Virus record (IMG/VR): IMGVR_UViG_3300017917_001562
Coordinates: 44,582-108,581 of that record
Source of the DNA: a virus
Length of the DNA: 64,000 nt
Reading direction: 5' to 3' (one strand)
This document shows positions 1-43,605 of this stretch, piece by piece. Numbering within the stretch: position 1 is the first letter of the stretch; each line of letters begins with the position of its first letter. Under the pieces are notes generated by a model, which was given only the letters and a program-made list of their open reading frames with translations, was not told the origin of the DNA and made no database searches. Both the position numbers and the translations under genes were made by a program.

Positions 1-85
1 GTGCTGGGCTTGTGTCGTCAGACATTTATTCTCCGAATAATGTACAGTTATTTAATACTGTAATTGTTCGAAGAAATATTTTTTC

Positions 86-382
86 TTAGCTTAAATTGTT
101 TTCCCAAGTATTCAATTTGTCCAAAATCAGCGCAAAATGACTGGCTTCGCCGGGAATTTCAAAAGCCACACACTGTTGCATAGCGATGTGTTTATTTTCT
201 GGATTTTCAACATAAGCATCTCCAGCAAAAAATCTTCCGTCGCAGTTTTCATTGACCCAGTCTGTAATTTTTTTAACATTGCATCTGAGATCAAATTGAA
301 CTTTAGTAAAATGTGGCGGGCAATGATCTAGCTGTCTAAGCCCAAACACATTTAAAGGATTAACTTCACCGTACTTTAACAT
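86..382 (-). CDS. hypothetical phage protein; possible distant member of the small LRW-type family
   Basis: 98-aa ORF with W-V-x-E-N core and C-terminal 'VAFEIPGEASHFAL', similar to the array proteins. Confidence 0.6.
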   Translation of the reverse strand: MLKYGEVNPLNVFGLRQLDHCPPHFTKVQFDLRCNVKKITDWVNENCDGRFFAGDAYVENPENKHIAMQQCVAFEIPGEASHFALILDKLNTWENNLS

Positions 383-465
383 ATTTGATTTTATTCTTAA
401 GTTGTTGCATATACCATTTTACATAGGCCCAACGCTCGGGACCAAGTTTCAAAAATTTTTTAATA

Positions 466-936
466 TCAAATTTCATCTTGTTTCTTGCAAAGTTCGCAAA
501 CAGTTAAAAATTGTTCGTAGGCATTACGAACTGCGGGATGAGTCATCAGCTTATCTGCTTCTTGTTCTAACGCCTTAATACCAGCTTCGGCAATATCACG
601 GATGCTGTTGTAATGTACATAACGACCTCGTTCGCCCATTACTTTCTTAAAGTGTTCCCATGCGTCATATTGTTCGTTAGTTAGTACTCTATTATTTTCT
701 TCATCACGCTTCATGTCTGAAGCATCACCTATTGCCTTACACATTTTATCAGCTGCAACACGACCTGCGGCAATCATGGCTGCATAGTTTGGATTAATGT
801 TGTAGAAGGTGCTTTGCCCACCCGGATAACTCACGATCAAATGTGTACCTTTTGGAAGGGCATCCATTAGTGTTTGATCATATTCTGAAACAGGCTTATA
901 CCGTCGACCTACTTTTTCATAGAATATCTTCTTCAT
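466..936 (-). CDS. hypothetical phage protein
   Basis: 156-aa ORF, coupled to the upstream gene; ends in an 'HPAVRNAYEQF..L' helix. Confidence 0.7.
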   Translation of the reverse strand: MKKIFYEKVGRRYKPVSEYDQTLMDALPKGTHLIVSYPGGQSTFYNINPNYAAMIAAGRVAADKMCKAIGDASDMKRDEENNRVLTNEQYDAWEHFKKVMGERGRYVHYNSIRDIAEAGIKALEQEADKLMTHPAVRNAYEQFLTVCELCKKQDEI

Positions 937-1213
937 TGTCTTTACCGTTGCTGTGAGTGTTACGATGGTTGTCTATGTCTTGAAACAGTTTCTTTTCTTG
1001 GGCTGTTGGTTCTTTAAATGTTTTTCTGGGATTACTACACATTACACATTTAGGATCTCCACAGTTCATAGCGTGGTGTTTGGCAAATCTGTGTCCTTGA
1101 TGTTGATGTTCAGGTGCACCATGCGACTTGGCAATTTTTTGTTGTTTATGAATAGCAGTTTCTTCTTGATGTAGTCGCTTGCTGTGTTTGAACTTGTCGT
1201 TGGGATCACTCAT
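917..1213 (-). CDS. small Cys/His-rich putative zinc-binding protein
   Basis: HxxxCxxxxCxxC (HAMNCGDPKCVMC); AAGGA RBS and consensus promoter upstream. Confidence 0.7.
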   Translation of the reverse strand: MSDPNDKFKHSKRLHQEETAIHKQQKIAKSHGAPEHQHQGHRFAKHHAMNCGDPKCVMCSNPRKTFKEPTAQEKKLFQDIDNHRNTHSNGKDNEEDIL

Positions 1214-1230
1214 ATTTTGTCCTTGTATTA

Positions 1231-1259
1231 ATTATATAGCCAAAACGGTTTTATGTCAA
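1231..1259 (-). promoter_or_regulatory. consensus sigma70 (early) promoter
   Basis: - strand TTGACA-17 nt-TATAAT directly upstream of 917..1213. Confidence 0.85.
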
Positions 1260-1261
1260 TG

Positions 1262-1549
1262 TTACATCCATTTTAATCTAAACCAATTGGCATCTTCTGG
1301 AGATTCAAAAGCTATTTTTACGCCTTGAATTTTATATTCACTTTGGCAATTTTCTTTTAACCAATCTCTTTTTTGTTGACATAAATTATCTGTGACCATA
1401 TGATTGGTAACATGAACAACATATCCGGACCCAAGAGCATTGTTTACCAATGTCCACCCCGATACTTCTACCCAAACACTAAAGTCTATTTCGTATTGAA
1501 CCTGCTCAGCTAGTTGATTTAGAATGTGTTCTTGTATATTATTGTTCAT
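1262..1549 (-). CDS. LRW-family small protein
   Basis: WLKEN core; ends FESPEDANWFRLKWM. Confidence 0.75.
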   Translation of the reverse strand: MNNNIQEHILNQLAEQVQYEIDFSVWVEVSGWTLVNNALGSGYVVHVTNHMVTDNLCQQKRDWLKENCQSEYKIQGVKIAFESPEDANWFRLKWM

Positions 1550-1551
1550 TG

Positions 1552-1773
1552 TTAACTCCATCTAAGACAAAAAGCTGTCAGTGTCGGTTTATCGGGCAAC
1601 ACCACAGTCATACCTTGGACCTTACTTTTATTTTGTTTACACCACACTTGTAGATCATCGTAGTGTATATTCCAGTATGCTATGTCTGACAGCACAATCA
1701 ACAATTCGCCGCCTGTTACTAGCGTATCAGGAATAATGAATCTTCGTCGGTGACCGTTGTCAAGTAAACTCAT
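1552..1773 (-). CDS. LRW-family small protein
   Basis: WCKQN core; ends TAFCLRWS. Confidence 0.75.
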   Translation of the reverse strand: MSLLDNGHRRRFIIPDTLVTGGELLIVLSDIAYWNIHYDDLQVWCKQNKSKVQGMTVVLPDKPTLTAFCLRWS

Positions 1774-2129
1774 CTTACTAAGTTTAACATGGTTTGATAT
1801 TGTTGCCAAAGATCTTGAAGTCCGGGATGTTGATGTCTAAGCCTAGTTTCTTCTTCTTGCTTATATACAATTTCTTGAATATCTCGCTTTAGGTCTACTG
1901 CATGTTGCTTTTCTTCCAACCATTGATCGTGTTCCATTAAAGCACGAAAACGATCTTCAGGCATGTGAATTTCTACACAAGTAAGATCCTCATATGGATT
2001 ATTGTTATAAATGTTTGGATCACTGGCCCATATTTTATAATCAACTCGTCTTACTCGTCTATGCATTTTTGTACTAGGCACTACATAAGCATCATATTTG
2101 TAACAAAACTCTGTAAAATCTTTTGTCAT
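1770..2129 (-). CDS. hypothetical phage protein (not LRW family)
   Basis: 119-aa ORF; ends HPGLQDLWQQYQTMLNL. Confidence 0.7.
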   Translation of the reverse strand: MTKDFTEFCYKYDAYVVPSTKMHRRVRRVDYKIWASDPNIYNNNPYEDLTCVEIHMPEDRFRALMEHDQWLEEKQHAVDLKRDIQEIVYKQEEETRLRHQHPGLQDLWQQYQTMLNLVR

Positions 2130-2130
2130 T

Positions 2131-2415
2131 TTAACTCCATTTTAATAACCATAAAGCTATATCGTCTTTATGTGTAAATCCCCACCATTCTTGTTGATTA
2201 TGAAAGTCGGAACTGTAAGACAGAATTTGGCCGCGGCAATGCAAATTACACCAAGTCCAGTATTCGTTGGAAAATTTAACAGGTTTAACACAAACAAACC
2301 ATTTACTGGGCTTGTGCGGTTTAACTTGTTCTGGCACCCAAAGTCCACTATCATCGTCACCAAGTCCTGGGCGAATATCGTTCCAAAATTCTTTGAACTG
2401 CTTTCGATTTATCAT
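2131..2415 (-). CDS. LRW-family small protein
   Basis: WC core; ends DDIALWLLKWS; start overlaps the upstream stop (ATGA). Confidence 0.75.
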   Translation of the reverse strand: MINRKQFKEFWNDIRPGLGDDDSGLWVPEQVKPHKPSKWFVCVKPVKFSNEYWTWCNLHCRGQILSYSSDFHNQQEWWGFTHKDDIALWLLKWS

Positions 2416-2624
2416 GACCACTTCAACAATGTTAACAAGGCTTTTTTCTCGTCTGCGAAATGCCAAGTAGTACCATAAGTGGGGCTCCTTAGATTCATAT
2501 CATATGTACGCCACCAGTCTTGTTTAAACTCACCTACATAAGTTTCTAACCACTCATTAAATGATACATCTGGTACTAATGAACGATGAAGACCCTTGAG
2601 TTGACTTTGATGTATTTTATTCAT
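2412..2624 (-). CDS. LRW-family small protein
   Basis: WLETYVG core; ends FADEKKALLTLLKWS. Confidence 0.75.
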   Translation of the reverse strand: MNKIHQSQLKGLHRSLVPDVSFNEWLETYVGEFKQDWWRTYDMNLRSPTYGTTWHFADEKKALLTLLKWS

Positions 2625-2626
2625 AC

Positions 2627-2857
2627 TTACGCCCATCGCAGTTTCCATATTACATATAGTTCTGGAGTCAAGTATAAAGCAGTATTACTGTCGGGATCAT
2701 CTCGCATTGGTCGCCATAAATCAGGATCTTGCACTCGGATCCACTCAAACATACCCTCGGGGGTCCTAAATCCTTCAAAGCTTGGATCATCAAAACAATA
2801 TGTTTTGTATCCGTGTGTAAAAAGTTCGTAACGACCGTTGCGTGGCAAATGACTCAT
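2627..2857 (-). CDS. LRW-family small protein
   Basis: ends YVIWKLRWA. Confidence 0.75.
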   Translation of the reverse strand: MSHLPRNGRYELFTHGYKTYCFDDPSFEGFRTPEGMFEWIRVQDPDLWRPMRDDPDSNTALYLTPELYVIWKLRWA

Positions 2858-3066
2858 CGGTTTCCTTTTAAAATAAACCACACAGCATCCTGCTCACGCT
2901 CAAACCACACTGTTCGACTACCGTAGTAGAGATAGAACTTACCAGGCGAATCCATTAACTGCAATTCACGCTTGAGTTGGGCATAGTTCCAATTTAGGTT
3001 GATTGTGCGTAGAACAGGATGCCAGTGCTGTTGCCGAACCTTTTTATCTTTGTTCCAATATTTCAT
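2854..3066 (-). CDS. LRW-family small protein (variant end)
   Basis: ends WFEREQDAVWFILKGNR. Confidence 0.75.
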   Translation of the reverse strand: MKYWNKDKKVRQQHWHPVLRTINLNWNYAQLKRELQLMDSPGKFYLYYGSRTVWFEREQDAVWFILKGNR

Positions 3067-3290
3067 GACCACCTTAATATAAACCAACTCATATCTTTAC
3101 GAGCATCCGGATAATCTAAAAAATAAAAATTAATTAAATCGTGTGTAATAGTATTACCATCACTGTGATATTGATTAGTAATGTAATGTGGACAGTTTTT
3201 CTTTGCCCATTGAATAGCACTATACAAATCAAGTTTACTACGGTCTACTGTTATGTAGTTATCAGTAATCTTCATATGCCAGTTGTCCAT
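3063..3290 (-). CDS. LRW-family small protein
   Basis: WAKKNC core; ends DMSWFILRWS. Confidence 0.75.
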   Translation of the reverse strand: MDNWHMKITDNYITVDRSKLDLYSAIQWAKKNCPHYITNQYHSDGNTITHDLINFYFLDYPDARKDMSWFILRWS

Positions 3291-3502
3291 CAACTCCACC
3301 TTAACAAAAATGCTGTATAATCTTCTTCATGCTCAAATACCGCAGTAACAAACTTGTTGTCTTTGTCCTCGACCATTTTGCAGCCAAACTCCTGTAACCA
3401 TTTTTTTCGGCTTTCTTCTAGTCCCAACGACTGAACACCAAGTGTTTCACGCCACGCACGACGAAACATTGAATGATGCTTTTTTAAATCTACTTCAATC
3501 AT
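3290..3502 (-). CDS. LRW-family small protein
   Basis: ends FEHEEDYTAFLLRWS. Confidence 0.75.
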   Translation of the reverse strand: MIEVDLKKHHSMFRRAWRETLGVQSLGLEESRKKWLQEFGCKMVEDKDNKFVTAVFEHEEDYTAFLLRWS

Positions 3503-3558
3503 GACCACCTCAATGCTAGCATTGTAGCATGATTTGCATATTTTCGTCTAACAAATTG

Positions 3559-3639
3559 ATAAATAAAAATGCGAGTCGCGATGCGTCAACATCCACCCGC
3601 CCTAACAGTTGAAAAGGAACTATCAGCATGAATATTTAT
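3559..3639 (+). promoter_or_regulatory. structured leader of the GIY-YIG gene (TAAATA, bulged hairpin, RBS-occluding hairpin, opposing TAAATA)
   Basis: same architecture with compensatory stem changes at 37259-37336. Confidence 0.65.
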
Positions 3640-4002
3640 TCCCCGGCACGACCCCCATCTGGGTATTATGTTTACGCATATATAAGATCAAAAGATTCGA
3701 AAACAGGTAAAGCAGGGACTCCGTATTACATTGGTAAAGGCAAGGGCAATCGAGCCACTCGACGTCACGGAAAAAACCCTATTCCAGATTTTGATTTCAT
3801 AGCAATATGTGAAGAAAATTTAACTGAAATTGGTGCATTAGCGATTGAACGATTCCTTATACGTGTTTGGGGGAGAAAAGATATCGGTACCGGAATTTTG
3901 TTAAACAGAACAGACGGCGGGGATGGGACATCGGGTAGATCAGCAGAGTCAATCTGCACCCAAACTGCGCCACCAAGGTCTACCCATCTTGGATCATTAT
4001 GA
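3628..4002 (+). CDS. GIY-YIG homing endonuclease, truncated after the catalytic domain
   Basis: YVYAY...YYIGKG...R...E...[10 protein letters not shown] motifs; the last ~20 aa are antisense of the interrupted gene. Confidence 0.8.
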
Positions 4003-4150
4003 TCTACAATTAAAGGGCCCACAGGCCACCTTACTTTGATAACAACACCAGGAACAAACCTCCACCAAAGTTTTTGCCAAATGTTTAATCCGCAAGGCAA
4101 ATATCTGCCAGACGGCAATTGAAATAAACTTTTAATTTCCCACTTAGCCA

Positions 4151-4552
4151 TTATGAATATTTCAATGCTATCATTACGGCATCTTGCTCATTGTTAGTTG
4201 CTACAAACACTTTATCCTCACCGCCTAGTTCGTTTACTGTCCATTCCCAATCAGTAGAAGGCTCACACATAACACGATGAAACTCCCAAACAGCATTTTC
4301 ACCTAAAGCACGAGCAGGCCAAAAATAATGTTTTGTATCTTCTCGCACGGTCCACCCAAACGGTTGTTCTAAGTTAAAAAACTTGTTAGGATCAACGATA
4401 ACAATATGTTTAAAATTTCTAAAAATATCTTTGATACGAGTAGCACGGACATTAACGGTTTGTTCATACCATGCCTTATACTCACGCTCTGCTTTTGTAT
4501 AACCAGTTGTGCGAGTAAGATACCAATCTTTGATATTGTCGAATAAAATCAT
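4151..4552 (-). CDS. LRW-family protein (longer variant)
   Basis: ends NNEQDAVMIALKYS. Confidence 0.75.
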   Translation of the reverse strand: MILFDNIKDWYLTRTTGYTKAEREYKAWYEQTVNVRATRIKDIFRNFKHIVIVDPNKFFNLEQPFGWTVREDTKHYFWPARALGENAVWEFHRVMCEPSTDWEWTVNELGGEDKVFVATNNEQDAVMIALKYS

Positions 4553-4555
4553 GGT

Positions 4556-4795
4556 TTATTCTGCTAATACTTCAAACAGTTCAGCATACTGTGTTTCGGG
4601 TTCATCAACGAATCCAGTATAGACCCATACTCTGCGACAATAAACTTTTTTAAGCCACACCCAACGGTTGTTAATAGTTTTATGCGGCAACAACACAAAT
4701 GTTTCAACCCAGTCGTGTTCTACCGCGGTTATGTCGCCTATGTTTGGGATAAACATTGCTCCTCTAACTATTTCTTTAAATAGGGAAAAACTCAT
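4556..4795 (-). CDS. hypothetical phage protein (not LRW family)
   Basis: W...F.LLP.KT...WVWLKKVY pattern, loosely like 16283..16540. Confidence 0.65.
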   Translation of the reverse strand: MSFSLFKEIVRGAMFIPNIGDITAVEHDWVETFVLLPHKTINNRWVWLKKVYCRRVWVYTGFVDEPETQYAELFEVLAE

Positions 4796-5013
4796 GCCCA
4801 CCTTAACGCTAATAAAATGTAAATTTTTTCATGAACATCAAATACATTATAGTTGATATGCCATTTTTCGTCAATGTTTTGAAACCATTGTTTATCTTCC
4901 TGCTCACAGAAAGATGTTCTTAACCAAATACTAACTTCTTTTTTACAAGATATAGTATACCAAGATTCATTATTAACTATAGCCTTAGTCCTTACTTTGA
5001 AGTTAGATTTCAT
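4792..5013 (-). CDS. LRW-family small protein
   Basis: ends YILLALRWA. Confidence 0.75.
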   Translation of the reverse strand: MKSNFKVRTKAIVNNESWYTISCKKEVSIWLRTSFCEQEDKQWFQNIDEKWHINYNVFDVHEKIYILLALRWA

Positions 5014-5258
5014 ACCCACCTCAACGCAAACATAGTATATTTTTTCTCATCTACCACTGCAACCTGCACAACTTCGTATCCGTGCCTACCATATATATCT
5101 TGTTTAGGACATAGATCTAATCTGAGCCCGGCTGTTTGTTCAATATGATACTTAAACCCAAGCATACGGTCCTCTCCAGAACTGGGCCAATCTGGGTCAT
5201 ATTCCATATAACATTTGTTTAGCAAACGATTTACGGATTTTGTATCTATAAATCTCAT
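5010..5258 (-). CDS. LRW-family small protein
   Basis: ends VDEKKYTMFALRWV. Confidence 0.75.
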   Translation of the reverse strand: MRFIDTKSVNRLLNKCYMEYDPDWPSSGEDRMLGFKYHIEQTAGLRLDLCPKQDIYGRHGYEVVQVAVVDEKKYTMFALRWV

Positions 5259-5467
5259 GAGCTCCACCTCAATGCAAACATAGTTGCATCCTTGCTATTG
5301 CGGAAGTAATAATCCACACCCTTCATTGAGGGCACTCGATTCCAGCGACCTTTAAACGGGCCCATGTTTTCGCCTAGCCATTCCTCAATCTTGTAATGCC
5401 CGGCGTGATCCATGGGCATAGAGATAGGAATCTTTGCTGGCCAAATTTCTTTCTTTAGTTGTCTCAT
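5255..5467 (-). CDS. LRW-family small protein
   Basis: WLGENMG core; ends FRNSKDATMFALRWSS. Confidence 0.75.
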   Translation of the reverse strand: MRQLKKEIWPAKIPISMPMDHAGHYKIEEWLGENMGPFKGRWNRVPSMKGVDYYFRNSKDATMFALRWSS

Positions 5468-5754
5468 GACCACCTCAACTCTAAGAATGTTACCATTTCC
5501 GGAGGAACTAAGAATACACTTTCAAACCATAGGTACCATGTGAACTTTTCTCGTGAGAAATGTTCGTTCATCCACACAACCTCTGGACCTAATACATCTA
5601 CGCAAACATAATCTTCATATCCCATGGGAGGGGCACGGCCAGTATCAACACGCGGCGGAATCAGGAATGTTGATTCATATTCGGCCAACCATTTAGCGTG
5701 AGCGGCTAGTTCGTTATCCGGTATCAGAGCAACACTTTGGAAATTTACTTTCAC
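5464..5754 (-). CDS. LRW-family small protein
   Basis: GTG start in a GTGA overlap; ends VTFLELRWS. Confidence 0.75.
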   Translation of the reverse strand: MKVNFQSVALIPDNELAAHAKWLAEYESTFLIPPRVDTGRAPPMGYEDYVCVDVLGPEVVWMNEHFSREKFTWYLWFESVFLVPPEMVTFLELRWS

Positions 5755-5984
5755 GACCACCTCAACATAAACCAAGTATACGCTTGTTCATCATAAAAGT
5801 CAATATACCTATCACCGTAACCGCTTAACGGATTTATGGGTTTGGCTATCCAAAAGTTTGCCGACCAGTCCATGAGAGCATGATTGATTTCTTCCTCGCC
5901 AAAACTATCTGGTAAAAAGTTATACCACCATCTTGGGATTTCAGATGGATGGCGATCTTCTTCAAATATCTTTATTCTAATCAT
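5751..5984 (-). CDS. LRW-family small protein
   Basis: ends FYDEQAYTWFMLRWS. Confidence 0.75.
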   Translation of the reverse strand: MIRIKIFEEDRHPSEIPRWWYNFLPDSFGEEEINHALMDWSANFWIAKPINPLSGYGDRYIDFYDEQAYTWFMLRWS

Positions 5985-6190
5985 GACCACCTCAACACAA
6001 ACATCATATAATCATCTACACGGCGAAATTCAAATACACCTTCACTAACATAACGCCAGTTCTGTTCCTTGAATCGTCCTCTACACCATTCCATCGCAGG
6101 CAACCAGCCCCAGTGCTCATACTCCTTGTGTGCAGGTTGAGGCACACTTGCAATAATCCAACTGTTGATAGGATTTCTTGGCAATTTCAT
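5981..6190 (-). CDS. LRW-family small protein
   Basis: EWC core; ends FRRVDDYMMFVLRWS. Confidence 0.75.
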   Translation of the reverse strand: MKLPRNPINSWIIASVPQPAHKEYEHWGWLPAMEWCRGRFKEQNWRYVSEGVFEFRRVDDYMMFVLRWS

Positions 6191-6441
6191 GACCACCTCA
6201 GAATAAACATACTAGCGTCTTTTTCTTTTTCAAACATCCAGATGCTACCTCGACCTTGATGGTTACCTTGTAAGTTTTCTCTGCACCATTTTTTGATTTC
6301 GTATATCTGCGTCTCGTGCATCCTTGCGGGCCACTTTATCTCAACCTTTGTATAGCCTAGTTTAATCATCATGTCGCACATGATTTCCCAGTCTGTTTCT
6401 TCCTGGAGGGTTTTTGCAAGGTCTTGTTTTATTATTGTCAT
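6187..6441 (-). CDS. LRW-family small protein
   Basis: WCREN core; ends FEKEKDASMFILRWS; 'ETDWEI' resembles 'EIDFSV' of 1262..1549. Confidence 0.75.
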   Translation of the reverse strand: MTIIKQDLAKTLQEETDWEIMCDMMIKLGYTKVEIKWPARMHETQIYEIKKWCRENLQGNHQGRGSIWMFEKEKDASMFILRWS

Positions 6442-6659
6442 GACCACCTCAACATAAACAAAGTAGCATGTGCGGGATCAGAAAACCACATTACATATCC
6501 AGAGCCGGGTTCTAGTCGCCAGTAGTGTTCGCTAGCTGGTTTTCCATATTGACAGTTATTAGGACTACCAAAAGTTTTTAAACACCATGCCCACCAAACA
6601 GGCAGGCCTTGTTGATTATATACATGTCTATGTTTCATGGGTACAATTACAATATTCAT
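6438..6659 (-). CDS. LRW-family small protein
   Basis: WCLKTFG core; ends FSDPAHATLFMLRWS. Confidence 0.75.
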   Translation of the reverse strand: MNIVIVPMKHRHVYNQQGLPVWWAWCLKTFGSPNNCQYGKPASEHYWRLEPGSGYVMWFSDPAHATLFMLRWS

Positions 6660-6901
6660 GACCACCTCAACGCAAATAACATAGCCTTTTTTTCGTCTAC
6701 GATAGAGATCATAGTATCACCTAACCTTGCGCTATACACTCCCCACTCATCGCCCGCTTCAGGCTCAATATCAATGCCGTCAGGCCAACTATTTTTTAAC
6801 CAACGGCCACCGGGTCCTACATTGTTGTATAACCAATGTTCTAACTCTACAAACTGTATCCGGTGTTTGCTCATAATGGTAGTAGCATCAAAGTTAATCA
6901 T
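6656..6901 (-). CDS. LRW-family small protein
   Basis: WLYNNVG core; ends DEKKAMLFALRWS. Confidence 0.75.
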   Translation of the reverse strand: MINFDATTIMSKHRIQFVELEHWLYNNVGPGGRWLKNSWPDGIDIEPEAGDEWGVYSARLGDTMISIVDEKKAMLFALRWS

Positions 6902-7146
6902 GACCACCTCAGCGTTGTAAGCATCATGTCTTGCTCAAATTCAAAATAAAATCGGCCGGTTGATTCACAAAAACTATATCGGCCATGGCTGGGATAATTG
7001 TTACACCAGTTTACAATAGCTGCTTCTTTAACGAGCCATTCTAAAGTACCAGTATCGTAACTATCGAACTCTTCCTTATTCCAAAAGTTAGTAGAGTCTA
7101 CAACATATTTGAAATTTTCTATGTCTAAGTTGGCTATTTTCTTCAC
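6898..7146 (-). CDS. LRW-family small protein
   Basis: GTG start; ends FEFEQDMMLTTLRWS. Confidence 0.75.
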   Translation of the reverse strand: MKKIANLDIENFKYVVDSTNFWNKEEFDSYDTGTLEWLVKEAAIVNWCNNYPSHGRYSFCESTGRFYFEFEQDMMLTTLRWS

Positions 7147-7355
7147 ACCCACCTCAACAGTGCAAACATTCTATCTTTTTCATTTGTAATATACCACAAG
7201 TCAACACCATTAAGTGTGCCCTGGTATTCTGTTTCTATAGAATTTTTTTCACACCACTTATGAAAGTTTATTCTTTGCTGTGAGCTAACAGTAAAGCCCC
7301 GCGGATCACCTACTAATTTTACTCTGCCCTTTTCTGCAAAAACTTTAGTGGTCAT
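7143..7355 (-). CDS. LRW-family small protein
   Basis: WCEKN core; ends NEKDRMFALLRWV. Confidence 0.75.
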   Translation of the reverse strand: MTTKVFAEKGRVKLVGDPRGFTVSSQQRINFHKWCEKNSIETEYQGTLNGVDLWYITNEKDRMFALLRWV

Positions 7356-7555
7356 GCCCACCTCAGTGCAAACCACTCTTTGTTTTCTCTAACTTGAAAT
7401 ATGTATCCGTTAGAGCCTGAACTTAGAAGAAAGTATTCTACTTTGTTTTCGCGCATCCAACCGTAGATGTCAAGCCACTCCTGAAATGTGCGAACAAGGT
7501 AAGTAGGGTAACCTGCCCAACCTGGGTAGCTAGTAGATTCGACTTTCATATTCAT
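7352..7555 (-). CDS. LRW-family small protein
   Basis: WMREN core; ends EWFALRWA. Confidence 0.75.
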   Translation of the reverse strand: MNMKVESTSYPGWAGYPTYLVRTFQEWLDIYGWMRENKVEYFLLSSGSNGYIFQVRENKEWFALRWA

Positions 7556-7562
7556 TGTGTTA

Positions 7563-7901
7563 TCAATCATGAAAATCGTAATCGTAGCAGTGTCTAATTT
7601 CGTGTCCTAAATTTGAAGTGCTGGTGTTGGTACCTGTAATTACAGTACACTGATCACCTCGCCAAACAGCACAACCAACAATTCTATTTTTACCAAATCT
7701 ACCATTGGTGCTTTTATCACAGATTTGTTGCAGCTCTTGGTCAGACACTTGACGCCAAGTAATAGTTCTTACTCTTGTTTGTGATTTAGCAGTACTGATG
7801 TGTTCGGCGTTGTATTCCCATGCCTTAACGGGGTTGACAGGTTGAGCACTACAACCAGATACTGCTGCAACAATCGCAAAAACTAAAGACATTTTTTTCA
7901 T
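7563..7901 (-). CDS. lipoprotein with HExxH zinc-peptidase-like motif
   Basis: signal peptide with lipobox VSGC; LGHEIRHC near the C-terminus. Confidence 0.7.
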   Translation of the reverse strand: MKKMSLVFAIVAAVSGCSAQPVNPVKAWEYNAEHISTAKSQTRVRTITWRQVSDQELQQICDKSTNGRFGKNRIVGCAVWRGDQCTVITGTNTSTSNLGHEIRHCYDYDFHD

Positions 7902-7902
7902 G

Positions 7903-8127
7903 TTAATTCCACCTTAACAAAAACATTGTCAAATCTTTTTGATTTTTAAATTCAAACATATCGTAGGCAATCCTGTAACCACAATGATTTTCCCTGCACC
8001 ATTCTACCATTTCAGCTATAGGATAGCCTAAATAATGACCTTCTTGATCAAGTATAAATTCATCCACCGAAATTTTTACAGCAAGCCTAAGCCTTGGATC
8101 TGGTTCAATGGCGTAGGCTTTGCTCAT
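7903..8127 (-). CDS. LRW-family small protein
   Basis: EWCREN core; ends FKNQKDLTMFLLRWN. Confidence 0.75.
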   Translation of the reverse strand: MSKAYAIEPDPRLRLAVKISVDEFILDQEGHYLGYPIAEMVEWCRENHCGYRIAYDMFEFKNQKDLTMFLLRWN

Positions 8128-9404
8128 TATGCTTTGGCCAATTCCTTGGCTCGTTCATAAATTGCCCAAACACCAAAGGGAGGTTCTGCTTGCTCGTTGC
8201 CTTTGATAATGAATACAGTATCGCAGTATTCGCTGTCACCCCACTCACCAAAAGGCATACCGTCAGTGAACATGATAAACTTCTTAGGTTGAATATCATT
8301 TTCCTTCATGTATTCCCAATTAGCCATAAAGTCAGTACCACCACCACCTTGGGGCTCATAGGTAAGAATGTCCTCTAGTGATTCTGAACTGTAAACTTGG
8401 TGATTATACACTGCGGTGTCAAAACTCCACACTTGAATCTTGTACTCGTCATAGGCTTCCATAATGCCTTTGATCTCAGCCATAAAAGCCTTGATGTCTT
8501 CCTCGCCAATAGAACCCGAAGTGTCAATGGCAATACAAACATCAATCTGTTGACCCGGGATCATACCAGGCATAACAGCATCCAAGTGCCAGCTACGGCG
8601 TGAAGGGCGCAACCAAGTAAAGTCGTTTTTAACGGTGCTTTGGATTTGTTGTTCCAACAGCTCACGCCAGTTAACTACAGGCCTAGTCAAGTCTTTGATC
8701 AGACGCTTAACACCTGACGGCAAATTGCTGGCGCCTGTGGCCTGTGCGGCCTGTAGCAGTGCTTCGCGGATTTCGTCTTTGATGGCCTGTCGTTCTTCTT
8801 TGCTGAGACGGGGACGACCTTTGCCTTCTTTCTCGTCACCATCTTCGTCGCTACTGCCGTTGTCACCATCACCGTCCAAGTGCTCGTCTAACAGTTGATC
8901 CATCAAATCGCTGATGTCAATTTTTTCTGCATTTTCATAAAGGTCGTCGTAGACTTCTTCAGCACTCCAACCTTTGTATTTGACATCATACAGGCAAGGG
9001 GTAATTTTGTCACCAATCCGTTGCTCAATCAAATCACTGTTAACACAATAGTCAGCGGCACAATTAAACAAACGGCGATCGCGGTCGCCATTACGACCCA
9101 TATGGTCATAGACATTGTGCAGAACTTCGTGGCCAAACAAGAACTCAAGTTCTTTGGGTTTCAGTTTATTAACGAACTCAGTGTTGTAATAAAATTTACG
9201 ACCATCGGTTGCAGCAGTACCAAGCCAACTGTCTGCATTAACCAATTGCAGTCTGGTAGCAAGGTTACCAAAGAATGGTGCCTTAAGCAAGAGACCGATA
9301 CGAGCAGTAGTCAATTTTTCACGCACTGCACGATCCAAAGCAGGATCGGTATTGTCAGTGAGACGACCTGCGATGTCTTTTTGTTTACTGTCTGATGTAG
9401 CCAT
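8127..9404 (-). CDS. metallopeptidase-like + VWA domain protein (DUF2201-type)
   Basis: TAATDG, HEVLH (HExxH), MIDAS DTSGS, GGGTDF, FTDG. Confidence 0.9.
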   Translation of the reverse strand: MATSDSKQKDIAGRLTDNTDPALDRAVREKLTTARIGLLLKAPFFGNLATRLQLVNADSWLGTAATDGRKFYYNTEFVNKLKPKELEFLFGHEVLHNVYDHMGRNGDRDRRLFNCAADYCVNSDLIEQRIGDKITPCLYDVKYKGWSAEEVYDDLYENAEKIDISDLMDQLLDEHLDGDGDNGSSDEDGDEKEGKGRPRLSKEERQAIKDEIREALLQAAQATGASNLPSGVKRLIKDLTRPVVNWRELLEQQIQSTVKNDFTWLRPSRRSWHLDAVMPGMIPGQQIDVCIAIDTSGSIGEEDIKAFMAEIKGIMEAYDEYKIQVWSFDTAVYNHQVYSSESLEDILTYEPQGGGGTDFMANWEYMKENDIQPKKFIMFTDGMPFGEWGDSEYCDTVFIIKGNEQAEPPFGVWAIYERAKELAKA

Positions 9405-9429
9405 TTATCTGCTCCTTGTTAATGTATAT

Positions 9430-9458
9430 ATTATAACACACTTGCGAATTTTTGTCAT
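9430..9458 (-). promoter_or_regulatory. sigma70-type promoter
   Basis: ATGACA-17 nt-TATAAT upstream of the VWA gene; AAGGAG RBS. Confidence 0.6.
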
Positions 9459-9471
9459 TAATACCAAAGTA

Positions 9472-9765
9472 TTACAACCATTTAAGTGTAAACAGTTCTA
9501 GTTCTTGATTTGTTTTAAGATAAATTAATGGAGTATCGTATTTAATATCCTCTAATCTATAAGACCAAGATTGGTTCCTAGTAAATTTTGCATGACTTAA
9601 ATGAAGGTTGAGTTGGACACCCATACCCCATATTTCATTGCACCAATGACACCATTCTACAAATTTAGGAATTCTAGAGTCAAAGGGTTCGTGCAGTTCA
9701 ATCCTGTATGCAAAATGCCCATATCCTCCATGACGGCGATCTAATTTTACAACCTTGGCGGGCAT
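9472..9765 (-). CDS. LRW-family small protein (outlier copy)
   Basis: WCNEIWG core; ends ELELFTLKWL. Confidence 0.7.
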   Translation of the reverse strand: MPAKVVKLDRRHGGYGHFAYRIELHEPFDSRIPKFVEWCHWCNEIWGMGVQLNLHLSHAKFTRNQSWSYRLEDIKYDTPLIYLKTNQELELFTLKWL

Positions 9766-9784
9766 GATTGTTACTAGTAATTGG

Positions 9785-9828
9785 GGACTTACGGGAGAAA
9801 GGAGTTGGAAAGCCCTGCCCCGTAGTCC
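9785..9828 (-). other. GC-rich stem-loop after the AAA gene (terminator or processing site)
   Basis: GGAC-TACGGG ... CCCGTA-A-GTCC arms. Confidence 0.5.
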
Positions 9829-10938
9829 TTACTTGCTGTTGGCGGCTACAATGTATTTGCCAAATCGCTTATGGAACTCGTCGAAATGTTTCAACTTGCC
9901 AGGAATGAAAGGCAGATTGTAGGTAGTCAGTGCAACACGAGCACCCATAACAGTCAATTCGGTAGTGAAATTGTCCATCATGTAACGGAAGAAGAAATCT
10001 GCCATACTGTTAAATTTCTCGTCAGGCTTGCCGTTATTTTTTAGCACATGATCCTGAAGTTCATAGCAGAGGTTCACAGTTAGTGAGTACATGGCTGAAA
10101 TTTCTTTGACCTTAAGATCAGTGACTTTGCCGTCAAGAATGTCAATAGGCTTAGGCAACTGACCTGCAACCTTGCGGTGCGCCATAAACTTAACTGCAAC
10201 ACCTTCGCCCACAGCACCTGAAATCAAGTCAGTAAGTTCGCTGTCAGTGCAGTCATTGTCCTCCAACAGTTCACTGACAAAAGTCCACGAACGAGGAGTA
10301 GCGAACGCACGGCTTGAACTACGGGGGTCAAAGTCGTAAAGGTCTTGTTTAGCAAAACCAATATAACCAATCACATCTGAACTGATGCGGTTAATGGTAG
10401 CCCATTGCTCCCACGATTCGTGATCAACTCGCATCTCCAAGTGAACGAAGCGGTTAGCCAACGGAGCAGGCATACGATAAGTAACGCCTTTATCAGTTTC
10501 ACGGTTACCTGCGGCAATCACAACCACATTGTCAGGCAGTGTATACTTGCCAATACGGCGGTTCAAAACCAGCTGATAAGCTGCGGCCTGGATGCTGGGT
10601 GCAGCACTGTTCATTTCATCAAGGAACAAAACAACCACAGGATACTGTTTGGCCAGTTCTTCACTGGGCAAGTCGATTGGGGGAGCCCAATCCATCAAAC
10701 CATTGTCTTTGTTGTAATAAGGAATACCACGCAGGTCAGTGGGTTCCATCTGTGCCAAACGAAGGTCAATCATAAGACCGCCCATTTCTTCAGCAATACT
10801 AGCAACCAGTTCGGACTTGCCGATGCCTGGAGGACCCCACAGGAACAGGGGTCGTTTTTTCTTAAAACACTTGGTAATGGCACGACGAGCGGTCAGTGCG
10901 GTTACAGTGCGATTTTCAGTAATTGAGTCTTTCGACAT
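9829..10938 (-). CDS. MoxR-like AAA+ ATPase
   Basis: Walker A GPPGIGKS, Walker B LFLDE, AAGN, NRF; adjacent to the VWA partner. Confidence 0.9.
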   Translation of the reverse strand: MSKDSITENRTVTALTARRAITKCFKKKRPLFLWGPPGIGKSELVASIAEEMGGLMIDLRLAQMEPTDLRGIPYYNKDNGLMDWAPPIDLPSEELAKQYPVVVLFLDEMNSAAPSIQAAAYQLVLNRRIGKYTLPDNVVVIAAGNRETDKGVTYRMPAPLANRFVHLEMRVDHESWEQWATINRISSDVIGYIGFAKQDLYDFDPRSSSRAFATPRSWTFVSELLEDNDCTDSELTDLISGAVGEGVAVKFMAHRKVAGQLPKPIDILDGKVTDLKVKEISAMYSLTVNLCYELQDHVLKNNGKPDEKFNSMADFFFRYMMDNFTTELTVMGARVALTTYNLPFIPGKLKHFDEFHKRFGKYIVAANSK

Positions 10939-11000
10939 CGTCTTCTCCTTTGCTTTAAAAAGTATATTATACCTAATCTGCGAATTATTGTCTGTAGTTA

Positions 11001-11273
11001 TTATACCACAGTCAACATATTAGCAGGAACTCGCCACAGACCTGCCACAGTGCGAACAGTGACATATTTCTGTGCAATTTTGACCACTGTACCAGTGTAA
11101 TCACGGCCTTGTTTGGAATTGTGAAAGTTAACATTGTCGCCCAACATCAAACTGGCTTTGGTTCGCTTGGTCAGCTGAGCCCTAGCATATTTTAAAGCTT
11201 CTGTAATTTTACTAAGGTCTTCGTTGGTAAAATTACCGGCCACCAATTCACGGACGATATCGTTTGTGTTCAT
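11001..11273 (-). CDS. small early protein, SH3/KOW-like C-terminus
   Basis: GDNVNF...GTVVKI.QKYVTV...WRVPANML; own promoter. Confidence 0.7.
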   Translation of the reverse strand: MNTNDIVRELVAGNFTNEDLSKITEALKYARAQLTKRTKASLMLGDNVNFHNSKQGRDYTGTVVKIAQKYVTVRTVAGLWRVPANMLTVV

Positions 11274-11281
11274 GTTAGTTC

Positions 11282-11339
11282 AACTCCTGTTTTGTTACTG
11301 TATGCCATTATTATAGCAAAATTGGGAATTTCGGACAAG
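11282..11339 (-). promoter_or_regulatory. early promoter/leader repeat, copy 1
   Basis: TTGTCC-17 nt-TATAAT with TGn extension, then ATGGCATA..TAACAAAACAGGAGTT; near-identical to 11976-12032. Confidence 0.75.
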
Positions 11340-11352
11340 TACTACTTGAGTA

Positions 11353-11778
11353 TTACTTTTCTAGGGCGTAGGGTTTGTCCCAACGGCCAATGTTGACATC
11401 AATATACCAACCCACATCAAAATAGTCAGTCATTGCATCGCTATTGTCGTGATTGCCGTTATTCATTGCAGGAATAACTTCCTTCAAAAAGTTAAGGGCC
11501 CGGCCACTGAAATGCTCTTTGTACCAATAAGGATTAACATCCAGGCTACGGTTCTTGCGGATGTAGTCAATTTGATCTTGACCCATCTTTTTACCAGACA
11601 GACCATTGGTGTCAGTTTCAATGAAATTTTCAATGAAGTCAATGCGACCCTGCTTGATGTTCAGAACCAAGGTGCTGTGATTGCGAACTGCAATACTGGC
11701 CTTGACACCATACTTCTTGCAGATTGCTTTGATGGCAGGTGCCAGCATAGCCTTCTTTTCTTGCGACATATAAGCCAT
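11353..11778 (-). CDS. conserved phage early protein
   Basis: MAYMSQE... DNSDAMTDYFDVGWY pattern; AGGAG RBS. Confidence 0.75.
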   Translation of the reverse strand: MAYMSQEKKAMLAPAIKAICKKYGVKASIAVRNHSTLVLNIKQGRIDFIENFIETDTNGLSGKKMGQDQIDYIRKNRSLDVNPYWYKEHFSGRALNFLKEVIPAMNNGNHDNSDAMTDYFDVGWYIDVNIGRWDKPYALEK

Positions 11779-39536: not shown

Positions 39537-39965
39537 TTATTCTGCCTTTTTATTCTTGTCTTTTTCAGTTATGGGTCCGCCTGTGATCCAAGCTCTACAA
39601 CTTCTTGCACCTGCACATTTGAAGTGCAAAAAGTTACAATAACCAATGTCAGCAATATTTATGCTGGCATTAGCATCTATGTTTGGTTCATCACCTTTGA
39701 TACCATTGGCTATGCATTCGCGCATACTGTCGCTGACATCAAAGGCCGCACAGTTTGCACACTGCATGGTTTTTGCAATAGCTTCTGTAACTTTAAATCC
39801 TTTTGCAGCTTTTTTCCAATAGTCGCCGGGATTATCAGGGTTAGCAGGACCATAATTATATTCATCTATGGCCTTTTGTCTATTTTTAAGATTAATATCT
39901 ATGTTATGAGTAGCTACAGGACAATTCTTTGTAGCTGCTTCCATGATCTGTATATAATTACGCAT
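39537..39965 (-). CDS. Cys-rich hypothetical (probable virion) protein
   Basis: CANCAAF, GYC..LHFKC...RSC.AW. Confidence 0.7.
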
Positions 39966-42900
39966 ATTTACGACCTTTGCGAGGTAAACTACCAATTGGA
40001 CTGGTAGCGTTTTCGTCACCAATGGTACTAGCACGACCAGTAAAGTCACTTATCCTAACTTCTTTTAATTTAACTTCCTTAATCTTAGGAATGCCAAATG
40101 CTCGTTGTGCTTCTAATACAGCAGCAGGACCTTGCGATTCTGTTATGTACCAGCCTTGGCTATCTTGTGTCATTTTAAAATCATTGCGTAAACTTGCAGT
40201 GTCTGTGGCTTTGGGTGTAAAATAAAATCTTGTTTCTACTACACCTTGTGGTGCTTGTTGTGCTTGAACAGCCTGTTGAGGATTTTGACGGAGCATTTGT
40301 GGGGCCATTGTAGCTATGTTTTGAGCATTAGGATTAGGTGCAGTTACTGCATTTACAACTTGGTTAATTAAACTATCATGTTGTTCTAGCTCTTGATAAA
40401 CATGTTCGTTTTCTTGATCAAGTTGATCTAATTTTGGTTTTACACTATTAGCTAAAGCTGAATTTAAATTATCAATCTCTGCATTTAATTTTTCAATTTG
40501 TGCTGTATAATCTTTAACTTGACCAACTCGAGCCTGTGCTGTTTTTGCAGCCGCTTCTGCATCTTTAAACTGTTGTTCTAATTTTTCAATTGCTTTAGCA
40601 TCAACAGTTTCACCTTGCTGAACAGCCGCAATGGCCTTTTCTAGTTCTGCAATTTTATCAGCTGATACACCGGTGCCCTGTTTGTTTTGCATACGCTGTT
40701 CTAAGTCAGCGATCTGACGCTCTAGTGTAGCAGTAGCTTCGGGATCAATGTCAGGTGTGGCCTTAAGTTGATCCAGTTGTTGAGCTAGTGTTTGTAACTG
40801 AGCTTTACTGGCCTGTTGCTTTACTTTTTCTTTTTCTAATTCGCCGCGATGCTTGGTAAGTTCCTTGCTAGTAATTTCACCTTGTTCAGCACCAATGTCT
40901 GCTCGTTCACCTGCAGCCTGCAACTCTGATTTTAATTCTTTATTATAAGCCTTGGTCTTTTCTAATTCTTTGAACAATGCCACAGCCACTTGTTGTTCGG
41001 GAGGTACACCACTCAGTCTTTGTCCTTGTACAAAATTCATCATCTTTTGATAATCTTGTGAAGGGGAAGCTTTGGCTTCGTTGGTTTTCTTTTTATTGCC
41101 CCAGTTTGCTGCACCTTTTTTACGGCACTGTACTAAGGCACCTGATGCATAAGCACTTGGCCATACTTTGTAACGGCTTTTAACTTTGTGATAGCAAGCG
41201 TCTTGTTTTTCAGCTAAGATTAAATTACTAAATGCTGGACCACCACACTCTGGACAAGTTTGTTGAGCTTCTGCCACATCTTGTTGTCTACGATGAAGTG
41301 TAACTTTATGTTCACCAGGCGTTTCTTTCCTCCATTTTTGTGCGGCACCTAAACTATCAAACTTCGGACCTGGTTGAAACTCTCCGTTTTTGTCTTTGGT
41401 ATGACCACGATAGTAATGTTCTTCATCGTATGCATCTGCGTTAAATCCTTCCGCTACACCTTGCTGACCTGTTACAGCCTGCAATAGTGCTCTTGCAACT
41501 ACACGATCTTTTTCCTGTTCGTCGTTGTCTAGTTCAGAATAACTAATTTTCATTAGTTTAGCTCTTTGCTGTAGTTTAGCTTCAAGTTTTCCCGCTTGAC
41601 GAAGTTTTTCGGTATCGTCAAATTGATCAGGGTCTTGAACAAATCTCAGTGCTGTGGTATTCCAACCTTTGTGAATTGCGTCTGCAATAGCTTCAATGTC
41701 TGTTACACCAGCATCAATCATTTTTTTAGCATAAGCAGCAGATTGAAGATTGGCTTGCCATCCAAAATTGTTGCCAGGTGTGCTACGACCATAACCATAT
41801 GCTTGGTCCAAGGCTGCATCGCTGACAGCAGCTAACTGCTGTATAGATAAACTATTAGCGTTTTCTGTCATTGGGCTTTCTACTGGTTCTGCTGAAGTAA
41901 CTGATATAATTATTCCACGCCTCTTAAACTTCTTTATTGTTTTGGCTATTGCTTCTTCTTTTGAATCTGCTTTAGTTTTGGTAGAACTATGAATTGGTTG
42001 TCCAACCTGTGTATTCCATTGAAAGTTAACTTTCCAAATTGGGGCAGTGTCTACAGCCACAGTGGGTTTAGCTTGAAGCAATGCATCTTGTTGTTTTGGT
42101 GGCAACGATAAAAACTCAGTTAGTTTCATCTTCTTGCCATTAATTGTTACAAGGTTCTGTCCACCACCCGCAGTGCCACCTTCGTATTTGATCCACTCCA
42201 GTGCAGGGCTTTTTACAATAAAACTGGTTAAGAAGAATGGTTTTGGATCGTTTCGGTTAGGCGCAAGATAAGATCTTCTGGCAGGATATGTCATTGCGTC
42301 AATATGTGTAAACTTCATGCCGTTTCGTGCAAGAATGCTTGATAGTGTATCGTAGTGGTTTTGTTGGACTTTACTAAAAGTATATGTGTCAGGTTTGCCA
42401 GAATACTGTGTTGCACCAGGACTGTATATGCTGCCTTCCGCCACACCTTGCTCGAACGATTTGAACACAGAACGAGCAACTGCTTTAACCTGTTCTGGAG
42501 AAAGTTTTTTACCTAGTTGCTCCTGGGCTTGTTGATAGATGTCTTTGATATCTGGATTGTTGAAATCGTCTTCGTAGTCCCAATATGTAAAGGACACTTT
42601 GTTACCATCTACATCAAGCACATACACCATTTGATCTAAATCGTAATCTTGCTTGACAATGGCAACGCCTTCCGCCACACCTTGCGTCAGGAATGATTGC
42701 AAAGCGTCGGATCTGCTAGGATGTTTTAGTTTTCGAAGTGCCTTTGCTTCAATCTGTCTAATTCTTTCGTTAGATACTCCTAATTTTCTGGCAACATCGG
42801 CTAATGACATATCATCATAGAATCTCATGTCGATGACTGTTTTTTCAGTATCAGTTAAAGTGGACATCTGTTTGGCCATCACACGCTGCAATTCTGCTTG

Positions 42901-43605
42901 GTCATACTTGTCGTTGGGATCATAAGGTTCGTCGTATTTTGTATCATATCGATCGGCATTGTGCACCGGATCTTGCGGGTCCAGTGTAGGCATCTTATTT
43001 TTTGCACCCTTATATGTTGCGCCGTTTGGATTGTATCGTGATATCTGTTGATTAGGATTTGCTTCCGCCACACCTTCATTGGATTTTTTCTTTGTAGCAA
43101 CATTGATCGCCGCACCACTACGCTCAGGATTTGGGTCTTCTCTGCGCTTTTTAGCAGCCGCATACTTACGGCCTTTTTTGCCTAGTGCATGTGCCTTGGC
43201 CTGTGGTAAACATTTTGGTTTACCTTCACTGCTATCGCCTCTAGCACAACTACCACGAATTTCGCCATCAGGTCCAAAACGAACCCACTTTTCTTTAAAC
43301 CACTTGCGTAGATTTTCTGTAACAGGTGCTGACGAGTCTGGTTCTAAATCATTTGTACGGTCACCGCGGTAGTTTTCTAAATTGTTGACAATTTCATCAA
43401 CAGCCATATCAACATCACTCATGCTGTGAATGTCATCTGCTTCCTCAGCATAATCAATAATAGCATCACCCACTACTTCATGCCCATAACGAGTAATTGC
43501 TTCGGGATATTTTTGTTGTAAGCCGTTAAACAATATCTCAGCCAAATCAATGGGACTGATATTTTCAAATAGTTTATTGTTATTATATAAATCGTTTAAA
43601 AACAT
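39958..43605 (-). CDS. modular polyprotein-like protein (sigma70 region-4 module, RyR-like module, coiled coil); probable internal head protein
   Basis: 1215 aa; five (Q)GVAE-type linkers; [30 protein letters not shown]; IH.GW...YSEL...EQEKDR. Confidence 0.75.
41268..43076 (-). repeat. in-frame linker repeat CAAGGTGTGGCGGAAGG (QGVAEG)
   Basis: 19-bp exact copies at 42433-42451 and 42667-42685; near copies at 43062-43076, 41447-41464, 41268-41283. Confidence 0.85.

Follow-up and report, generated by a model that had tools for sequence, protein, structure and literature searches.

Background

The hyperplastic regions of T4-type phages contain promoter-early stem-loop (PeSL) cassettes (Arbiol et al. 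2010, PMC2839356; Comeau et al. 2014, PMC4122927). A PeSL consists of an intergenic sigma-70-like early promoter and an adjacent terminator hairpin, and mini-circles have been shown (PMC2839356, PMC4122927). Here we analyze a window of 64,000 nucleotides (nt) from an IMG/VR virus contig (record IMGVR_UViG_3300017917_001562), in which the members of a tandem array of small paralogous genes are linked by a 15-base sequence, TTGAGGTGGTCATGA, hereafter the joint, made of the last codons of one gene and the start codon of the next. The closest analogue of this joint is PeSL-type shuffling. In both cases the borders of small variable genes, in a phage related to T4, carry repeated copies of one short and conserved expression signal; where close relatives differ by an insertion, a deletion or a replacement, the difference ends in this signal, and exchange is proposed to proceed by general homologous recombination, without a dedicated recombinase, so that the moved genes stay expressed. 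Unlike a PeSL, the joint lies inside coding sequence, is translational (a predicted Shine-Dalgarno (SD) sequence, a start and a stop), measures 15-24 nt and links one protein family. Furthermore, the joints have no intergenic spacer, and neither promoter-like sites (34 against 31.4 expected in positions 1-11500) nor terminator-like sites (11 against 8.8) are enriched.

Translational coupling at ATGA and TGATG overlaps with an intragenic SD was described by Huber et al. (2019, PMC6728339), in whose experiments removal of the SD usually, not always, lowered re-initiation. The array shares with those overlaps the 4-nt or 1-nt stop-start overlap and an SD that lies within the final codons of the preceding gene, but its SD derives from a conserved protein motif repeated across about 20 consecutive genes, and the same bases also mark structural variation. 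As in integron arrays, small and mostly promoterless genes stand in one orientation, and content and order change by whole units; unlike integrons, the array has no IntI, attI or attC, its cassettes are paralogous, and they carry chained translation signals instead of relying only on a Pc promoter. Tandem families also expand and contract by unequal crossing-over in the gene 'accordions' of poxviruses. There, as here, copy number in a viral genome changes by exchange between repeated units, followed by divergence; however, whole units are alike in the accordions, whereas the array keeps only a boundary of 15-24 nt alike and its gene bodies have diverged beyond DNA alignment.

The reading that we favor, with a probability of about 0.7, is that of a joint with three uses, at which short-homology exchange by the general machinery would shuffle whole genes. 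The same 15 bases would then appear to be constrained at three levels, namely protein, translation and genome structure, and modular shuffling at expression signals, known for the intergenic motifs of T4-type phages, would extend, in uncultured giant phages, to a linker that is both coding and translational.

Occurrence and form of the joint

When up to three mismatches were allowed, TTGAGGTGGTCATGA had 15 matches, compared with a mean of 1.72 and a maximum of 6 in shuffled sequence (0 of 100 shuffles reached 15). Fourteen of these lie on the minus strand between positions 2412 and 7366, at the ends of small genes, and the remaining 44 kb of the 108.6-kb contig, beyond the window, hold no good copy. 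The full 15-mer is exact five times, at 3499-3513 (behind a gene relic), 5464-5478, 5981-5995, 6438-6452 and 6656-6670, and a 14-mer is exact seven times, a count already given in an earlier note made from the letters alone; the two further copies, both CTGAGGTGGTCATGA, at 6187-6201 and 6898-6912, start with CTG and hence are not exact 15-mers. The other minus-strand joints returned by the search are CTGAGGTGGGCATGA (7352-7366), TTGAGGTGGGTGTGA (7143-7157), TTGAGGTGGTCGTGA (5751-5765), TTGAGGTGGGTATGA (5010-5024), TTAAGGTGGGCATGA (4792-4806), TTAAGGTGGTCATGA (3063-3077) and TTGAAGTGGTCATGA (2412-2426), and inspection of gene-end codons added the variant AGGTGGAGCTCATGA (5255-5269, minus strand). 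The same note had placed the pattern at 2412-7366; this range does hold the 14 minus-strand joints, but the array is larger, with about 23 family genes at 1262-8127 plus an outlier at 9472-9765.

Copies of the 15-mer close small open reading frames (ORFs), and the ATG within TCATGA is the start of the next ORF. In the joint variants GCATGA, GTATGA, GTGTGA, TCGTGA and AGCTCATGA the start codon that overlaps the stop is retained throughout. Thirteen joints of the window fit AGGTGG-NN-(A/G)TGA, the other overlapping ones being AGGTGGAGCTCATGA at 5255, AAGTGGTCATGA at 2412, CGATGA at 2854, TGATG at 3290 and TAATG at 4151. Genes that stop with TAA or TGA ahead of a separate ATG write Ser as AGT, and TGG AGT then yields GGAG; at ATGA overlaps Ser is TCA. 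Conservation breaks off directly behind the stop codon and fades, on the other side, some 10 nt ahead of the 15-mer. The joint is the sole DNA identity (15-24 nt) among neighboring genes with otherwise unalignable bodies. The description of the gene bodies as unalignable was thus right for DNA, where 2 of 253 pairs gave a short blastn match, but not for the proteins, which are homologous by profile even though only 13 of the 253 pairs pass BLASTP at 1e-3.

Protein tail and predicted ribosome site

Of the ORFs with an L-[RK]-W tail that a scan returned, 22 lie in the window and one more lies upstream in the contig. Alignment of the 23 window proteins (alignment A1) showed conserved W52, L81 and W83, with a near-invariant Trp in W-C-x-E-N followed by an F.F..e.DA..F.LRWS tail, and all 23 match the family profile, over about 45 C-terminal residues, at 8e-5 to 1e-15. 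The outlying gene at 9472-9765 (minus strand; A1 and profile) ends in TLKWL, written AAA TGG TTG TAA, and neither it nor its orthologues in relatives have a downstream start nearby, which shows that L-[RK]-W is conserved on account of the protein itself. These comparisons show the last codons of the joint to encode a conserved protein tail.

The codons chosen for this tail are unusual for the phage. Arg is AGG in 15 of 17 motif positions, nearly always as had been noticed at first sight, whereas AGG makes up 8.3% of Arg in the long ORFs of the contig (binomial p 7e-15); in the same long ORFs TTG accounts for 22% of Leu and TCA for 13.7% of Ser. No tRNA was found on the contig by aragorn, hence no phage tRNA for AGG on the contig. 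For a comparison of codons we used 95 distinct family gene ends from seven related arrays. AGG was the Arg codon in 51 of 57 ends when the next start overlaps the stop, against 4 of 12 when it does not (Fisher 1e-4), and gene ends without a downstream start within 12 nt use mainly AAA, CGA and CGT (AGG in 3 of 14). Of 82 family ends, 62 have a Leu codon with G in third position, compared with 31% genome-wide. On these codon counts, the rare AGG, TTG/CTG and TCA are used largely where they build GAGGTGG-NN-ATGA.

With a 16S tail of the Escherichia coli type, which may not be that of the host, GAGGUGGUC is predicted to form 9 pairs (one G-U) at -14.1 kcal/mol, and GAGGTGG stands 5 nt before the ATG. 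For 19 array junctions the predicted 16S duplex averages -9.8 kcal/mol, and for the contig's 36 remaining overlapping gene pairs -3.8 (p 1e-5); overlaps are thus common in this phage, and it is the strong and uniform SD that is special to the array. Pairing with the 16S 3' end, with one G-U among the pairs, had been claimed before and is correct for this type of tail, and the claimed coupling overlap of the ATGA type is likewise found, with stop and start overlapping on the same strand and the SD in the 3' end of the upstream gene. One copy of the 15-mer in a related phage, array L004, positions 10289-10303, comes after a non-family gene that stops at the TGA within TTGAGG; being read out of the LRWS frame, this copy is kept for the downstream gene alone. 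The SD bases have a predicted unpaired probability of 0.31 against a local average of 0.43; G-rich bases in an AT-rich RNA do so anyway, and the difference therefore says nothing about coupling. Taken together, the joint very probably provides a strong predicted SD and an overlapping start for the next gene, and a predicted SD of this strength could equally permit initiation independent of upstream translation. That protein tail and ribosome site jointly shape the joint is the part of our reading of which we are most confident, and we would be surprised to see it fail.

Gain, loss and order of genes among relatives

We gathered 240 related loci through the neighboring DUF2201 protein and one downstream gene. 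The small clade that shares both array and joint has DUF2201 proteins 74-91% identical and flanking DNA about 75-84% identical; WIN denotes the array of the window, and L002, L003, L004, L005, L006, L026 and L082 those of related phages. There are 23 family genes in WIN and in L005, 19 in L004, and 9 each in L006, L082 and L026, while L002 and L003 have at least 5, the contig ending within the array. Comparison of gene clusters showed the first and last family genes and the flanks to be conserved anchors, between which the interior varies. WIN and L005 have 13 of about 27 gene clusters in common, 4 of them out of order, L082 has only its 9 family genes between the same anchors, and L004 carries an internal duplication, with cluster 12 present twice. 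In a 97%-complete relative (338.5 kb) all family genes are in one array, and a RecA/UvsX-like gene is present. More distant lineages (L235, L247, L176, L206 and others) have shorter arrays with mixed tails (LKWK, LKWR, longer), and AGGTGG-NN-RTGA is rare in them.

Two near-identical pairs, L005/L004 (about 95%) and L002/L006 (98.5% elsewhere), allowed five events to be mapped to the base. In event 1, L005 has one extra gene between two identical 17-nt joints, TTGAGATGGGCATGAAA, where L004 has a single hybrid joint. Three extra genes distinguish L005 in event 2, the left end of which falls exactly at the stop-start overlap. Event 3 sets two genes of L005 against one unrelated gene of L004, with both ends within the 15-mer. 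In event 4, L004 has about 1.2 kb more, including the duplicated gene; the left end lies 5 nt past a joint and the right end at the first base of a joint. In event 5, L002 has two genes more than L006, and the distinguishing bases put the crossover inside AGGTGGTCATGA. Altogether, 9 of the 10 ends lie within -15 to +5 nt of a stop, in genes with a mean length of about 250 nt, and two crossovers are resolved inside the joint. An alignment of the array across relatives, with breakpoints sought in the 15-mer, was what the earlier note had proposed as a check, and its expectation that whole genes are added, dropped and reordered at joints agrees both with these breakpoints and with the shuffled order between arrays.

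Two observations were made beside these events. At L004 12867-13221, next to the duplicated gene, the final 35 codons of a family gene are joined, out of frame, to a truncated copy of the 'MSKFEI...' gene. At L004 5284-5578, a 98-aa (amino-acid) non-family ORF, absent from L005, lies in the intergenic region upstream of the promoter-like site of the DUF2201 gene.

A search with the tyrosine integrase profile PF00589 gave no match in the 108.6-kb contig or in the 338.5-kb, 97%-complete relative with the same array type, while controls matched in 14 of 14 genomes; the search was for tyrosine integrases, and none was made for serine recombinases or other enzymes. At the cassette ends, where genes overlap by 4 nt and so leave no room between them, and the conserved block spans 15-24 nt, no attC was seen by inspection, no dedicated attC model having been run.

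Proposed exchange at the joint and alternative explanations

In the mechanism that we propose, nearly every base of the joint would be fixed by selection, which acts both on the tail of the protein and on a strong ribosome site whose start codon overlaps the stop. GAGGTGG plus NNATGA would place a very strong SD 5 nt before a start that overlaps the stop, and the genes would be translated successively, by re-initiation and/or direct ribosome binding. The joints would at the same time be the sole short-homology substrates offered to the general recombination and replication machinery of the phage, and exchange between them, whether by unequal crossing-over, slippage or annealing, would remove, add, duplicate, replace or move whole genes, each product retaining frame and ribosome site. 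Because exchange confined to these islands stays in frame and translated, gain, loss, duplication, replacement and reordering of clean whole genes, and the uptake of a foreign gene as in event 3, would be accounted for. The data fit a homology-guided exchange by a general recombination system, as proposed for PeSLs. Selection for protein tail and ribosome site would be enough to account for the joint sequence itself, and recombination would most likely be a consequence that makes the array evolvable, and not a separately selected site. As to whether the joint truly raises the rate of exchange or only marks viable breakpoints, the breakpoint data incline us, with some reserve, towards the former. 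Of the triple use first suggested for these bases, protein motif, predicted ribosome site with start, and breakpoints at the joint all gain support; the integron label attached to it does not.

Several points weigh against this proposal. Only five events, in two near-identical pairs, are mapped to the base, and the right ends of events 2 and 4 are blurred by diverged N-termini. Mid-gene scars, namely the chimera at L004 12867-13221 and the split gene of the window at 3499-4151, show exchange beyond the joints, and outside the array L004 and L005 also differ by an ordinary intergenic insertion. The gene-end codon counts come from related arrays and are phylogenetically non-independent, and the predicted ribosome site presupposes a host with such a 16S tail that makes use of SD sites. 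Finally, since the genes overlap, viable whole-gene indels are forced to end at a joint, and selection alone could give the breakpoint pattern.

This last point is the core of the alternative that survives best, possible in our view though on the improbable side: the 15-mer would be kept for tail, ribosome site and start, would have no effect on the recombination rate, and random indels would be filtered by the overlap. Protein motif, anti-SD pairing and ATGA overlap do indeed explain every base of the 15-mer, and the mid-gene scars and the ordinary intergenic insertion show that other types of event take place. However, both cleanly resolved crossovers fall inside identical repeats of 12-17 nt flanking the indel, and a crossover within short identical flanking repeats is the classic signature of short-homology exchange, as in deletion formation in T4 and E. 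coli. Furthermore, arrays are largest and most variable in the clade whose joints are uniform, and short in lineages with heterogeneous ends. These points are correlational.

More doubtful is the bolder possibility that the joint is a selected plug-and-play device, through which co-infecting giant phages would trade single ready-to-express genes, possibly via small circles. Unrelated genes would then be recruited too, an example being the non-family gene of L004 framed by two joints. If true, the array would be a library of cassettes that the phage carries and that needs no recombinase, by which it could adapt fast against host defenses.

We consider it very improbable that the uniform 15-mer is itself the result of recombination, with gene conversion among neighbors homogenizing the joints. 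The rare variant TTGAGATGGGCATGA on both sides of the extra gene of L005, and joints much more alike than the remainder of the genes, are what such concerted evolution would leave, but conversion tracts should carry flanks, whereas identity drops right past the stop and decays within about 10 nt upstream, and the choice of codon follows the presence of an overlapping start, which points to selection.

Hardly credible is an integron-like, site-specific cassette system, in which a dedicated recombinase would recognize the joint, excise single genes as circles and re-insert them. Small promoterless genes in one orientation, which are gained, lost and reordered as whole units at one fixed, short site, agree with it. 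Against it, no PF00589 tyrosine integrase was found in the contig or in the 97%-complete relative, and the joint lacks the imperfect inverted repeat typical of attC, its only palindrome being the 6-nt TCATGA. Furthermore, almost every cassette belongs to a single family of paralogues, which argues for duplication in place and divergence, and the joint varies freely where protein and ribosome-site constraints permit.

Under the reading that we favor, of a three-use joint with exchange by the general machinery, the joint would amount to a design rule for chaining small genes, each of which is still translated after an insertion or a deletion.

The protein family

A profile search of 1.84 billion representative proteins at E<=1e-3 returned 1,216 representative clusters of the family, defined at 50% identity, most of them 55-115 aa long and ending one residue past the Trp. 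The analysis thereby singles out a very large, fast-turnover family of small phage proteins without a Pfam or PHROG name. Its members have a variable N-terminus, a helix with W-C-x-E-N, a beta hairpin with F.F and a final helix ending in L-R-W-(S/A/V). The AlphaFold2 model of one member, encoded at 6187-6441 (126 sequences; predicted local distance difference test (pLDDT) 93), shows a long helix followed by strand-helix-strand-strand-helix. In searches with family members no Pfam or PHROG family matched the domain, and Foldseek gave no match in the Protein Data Bank (PDB) at E<=0.001; the VIA-align wide search had a best Z of 6.1, to generic alpha+beta arrangements only, from which no function can be read, and BFVD and the ESM Atlas returned only uncharacterized phage proteins. 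We found no paper on the LRW family or on the array arrangement in a literature search, and a full-text search for 'LRWS' gave nothing relevant.

Among cultured phages, megablast of the array matched solely in the neighboring DUF2201 gene, in Salicola phage SCTP-2, and tblastn with one family member gave no match. The family profile found no member in SCTP-2 and six scattered members in Agrobacterium phage Atu_ph07; these six have LRY/LRF tails, share no joint and form no array. The rapid turnover of the array in a variable region invites the speculation that its proteins serve in host takeover or counter-defense.

Orthologues of the 6187-6441 gene (P0003, P0004, P0024; 56-74% identical) have a longer N-terminus that passes the Pfam threshold for Gp23, the T4 major capsid protein, at profile positions 136-228 of 376 and 24.9-29.2 bits against a cut-off of 24.4. 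In these orthologues a fragment of a capsid protein seems to be fused to the LRW domain, and the window copy seems to retain only its last part.

Genes of the array

From the ORF list, the tail scan, A1 and the profile, the array comprises, on the minus strand at 1262-8127, about 23 paralogous small genes (70-133 aa) and three non-family genes, with one ORF on the opposite strand. Genes are on the minus strand in what follows, unless stated, and are given in the order of transcription. The first family gene (7903-8127; tail LLRWN, stop TAA, next ATG 1 nt past the stop) is a conserved anchor in relatives. It is followed by a non-family gene (7563-7901) with a lipoprotein-like N-terminus (LPAM_1, E 0.037, below the cut-off) and by an unbroken run of family genes aligned in A1: 7352-7570 (ALRWA), 7143-7355 (LLRWV, next start GTG), 6898-7146 (TLRWS), 6656-6901 (ALRWS), 6438-6659 (MLRWS), 6187-6441 (ILRWS, the modeled member), 5981-6190 (VLRWS), 5751-5984 (MLRWS ending TCG TGA, next start GTG), 5464-5754 (ELRWS), 5255-5467 (ALRWSS, with one additional codon and the TCATGA end retained), 5010-5258 (ALRWV) and 4792-5013 (ALRWA). 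Next come a non-family gene of cluster 7 that is kept in relatives (4556-4795) and a divergent family gene (4151-4552; A1 and profile) with tail ALKYS, stop TAA and a TAATG overlap.

The region 3499-4151 holds a split family-like gene, recognized by comparison with relatives. Its 5' part (3958-4151) and its 3' relic (3499-3543, last codons ..KYANHATMLALRWS-stop) are separated by a plus-strand ORF with a GIY-YIG-like motif (3628-4002), which matches phrog_15526 at 7.7e-16 over profile positions 4-85 of 168, about half the profile length, and GIY-YIG weakly at E 0.15. The gene is intact in L005 (16190-16573), L004 (10611-10994) and L006 (13314-13694), with about 126 aa and a tail ..LQWS or ..LLWA. 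To judge from these matches, the split looks like a decayed homing-endonuclease insertion. The final 14 or so codons of the gene persist and still give the 15-mer joint to the next gene. We had considered the joint at 3499 as one standing alone without a gene, and rejected this, 3499-3513 being part of the relic.

Beyond the split gene, further family genes aligned in A1 lie at 3290-3502 (LLRWS, written AGG TGG AGT TGA, with a TGATG overlap), 3063-3293 (ILRWS), 2854-3066 (ILKGNR, ending CGATGA; also by profile), 2627-2857 (KLRWA, with Arg CGA, stop TAA and no overlap), 2412-2648 (LLKWS, written AAG TGG TCA TGA) and 2131-2415 (LLKWS, written AAA TGG AGT TAA, with GGAG before the next ATG). The 2854-3066 member has ILKGNR in place of IL[KR]W, the overlapping next start being kept though the protein motif is lost. 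After a third non-family gene (1770-2129; cluster 22, common to L006), the array closes with two family genes aligned in A1, one at 1552-1773 with tail CLRWS (AGA TGG AGT TAA), a conserved anchor near the array end, and the last at 1262-1561 with tail RLKWM. Directly past this last gene, and before the genes at 917-1213, the minus strand carries a perfect sigma-70 consensus at 1231-1259 (TTGACA, 17 nt, TATAAT).

The phage and the neighborhood of the array

The source contig has 108,581 bases and a G+C content of 37.8%, and is 31% complete according to CheckV, which implies a full genome of roughly 350 kb. Its B-family DNA polymerase is nearest to those of the jumbo phages Sinorhizobium Phosso, Agrobacterium Atu_ph07, Vibrio 2.275.O and Salicola SCTP-2 (42-52% identity), the genes near the array encode a MoxR-like AAA ATPase, a DUF2201 metallopeptidase/VWA protein, a ClpB-like ATPase and a protein with sigma-70 region 4, and related contigs of up to 338-383 kb come from freshwater lake metagenomes. 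On this kinship of the polymerase, these gene neighbors and these relatives, the window is to be regarded as a piece of the genome of an uncultured giant (jumbo) freshwater phage. Upstream of the DUF2201 gene that precedes the array, an 11/12 match to the sigma-70 consensus with an extended -10 lies at 9430-9458. The gene at 39958-43605 (minus strand) encodes a protein of 1,215 aa, unusually large for its sigma-70 region 4 domain (residues 247-295), and the protein adjoining it, of 1,119 aa, is likewise unusually large for its LysM domain.

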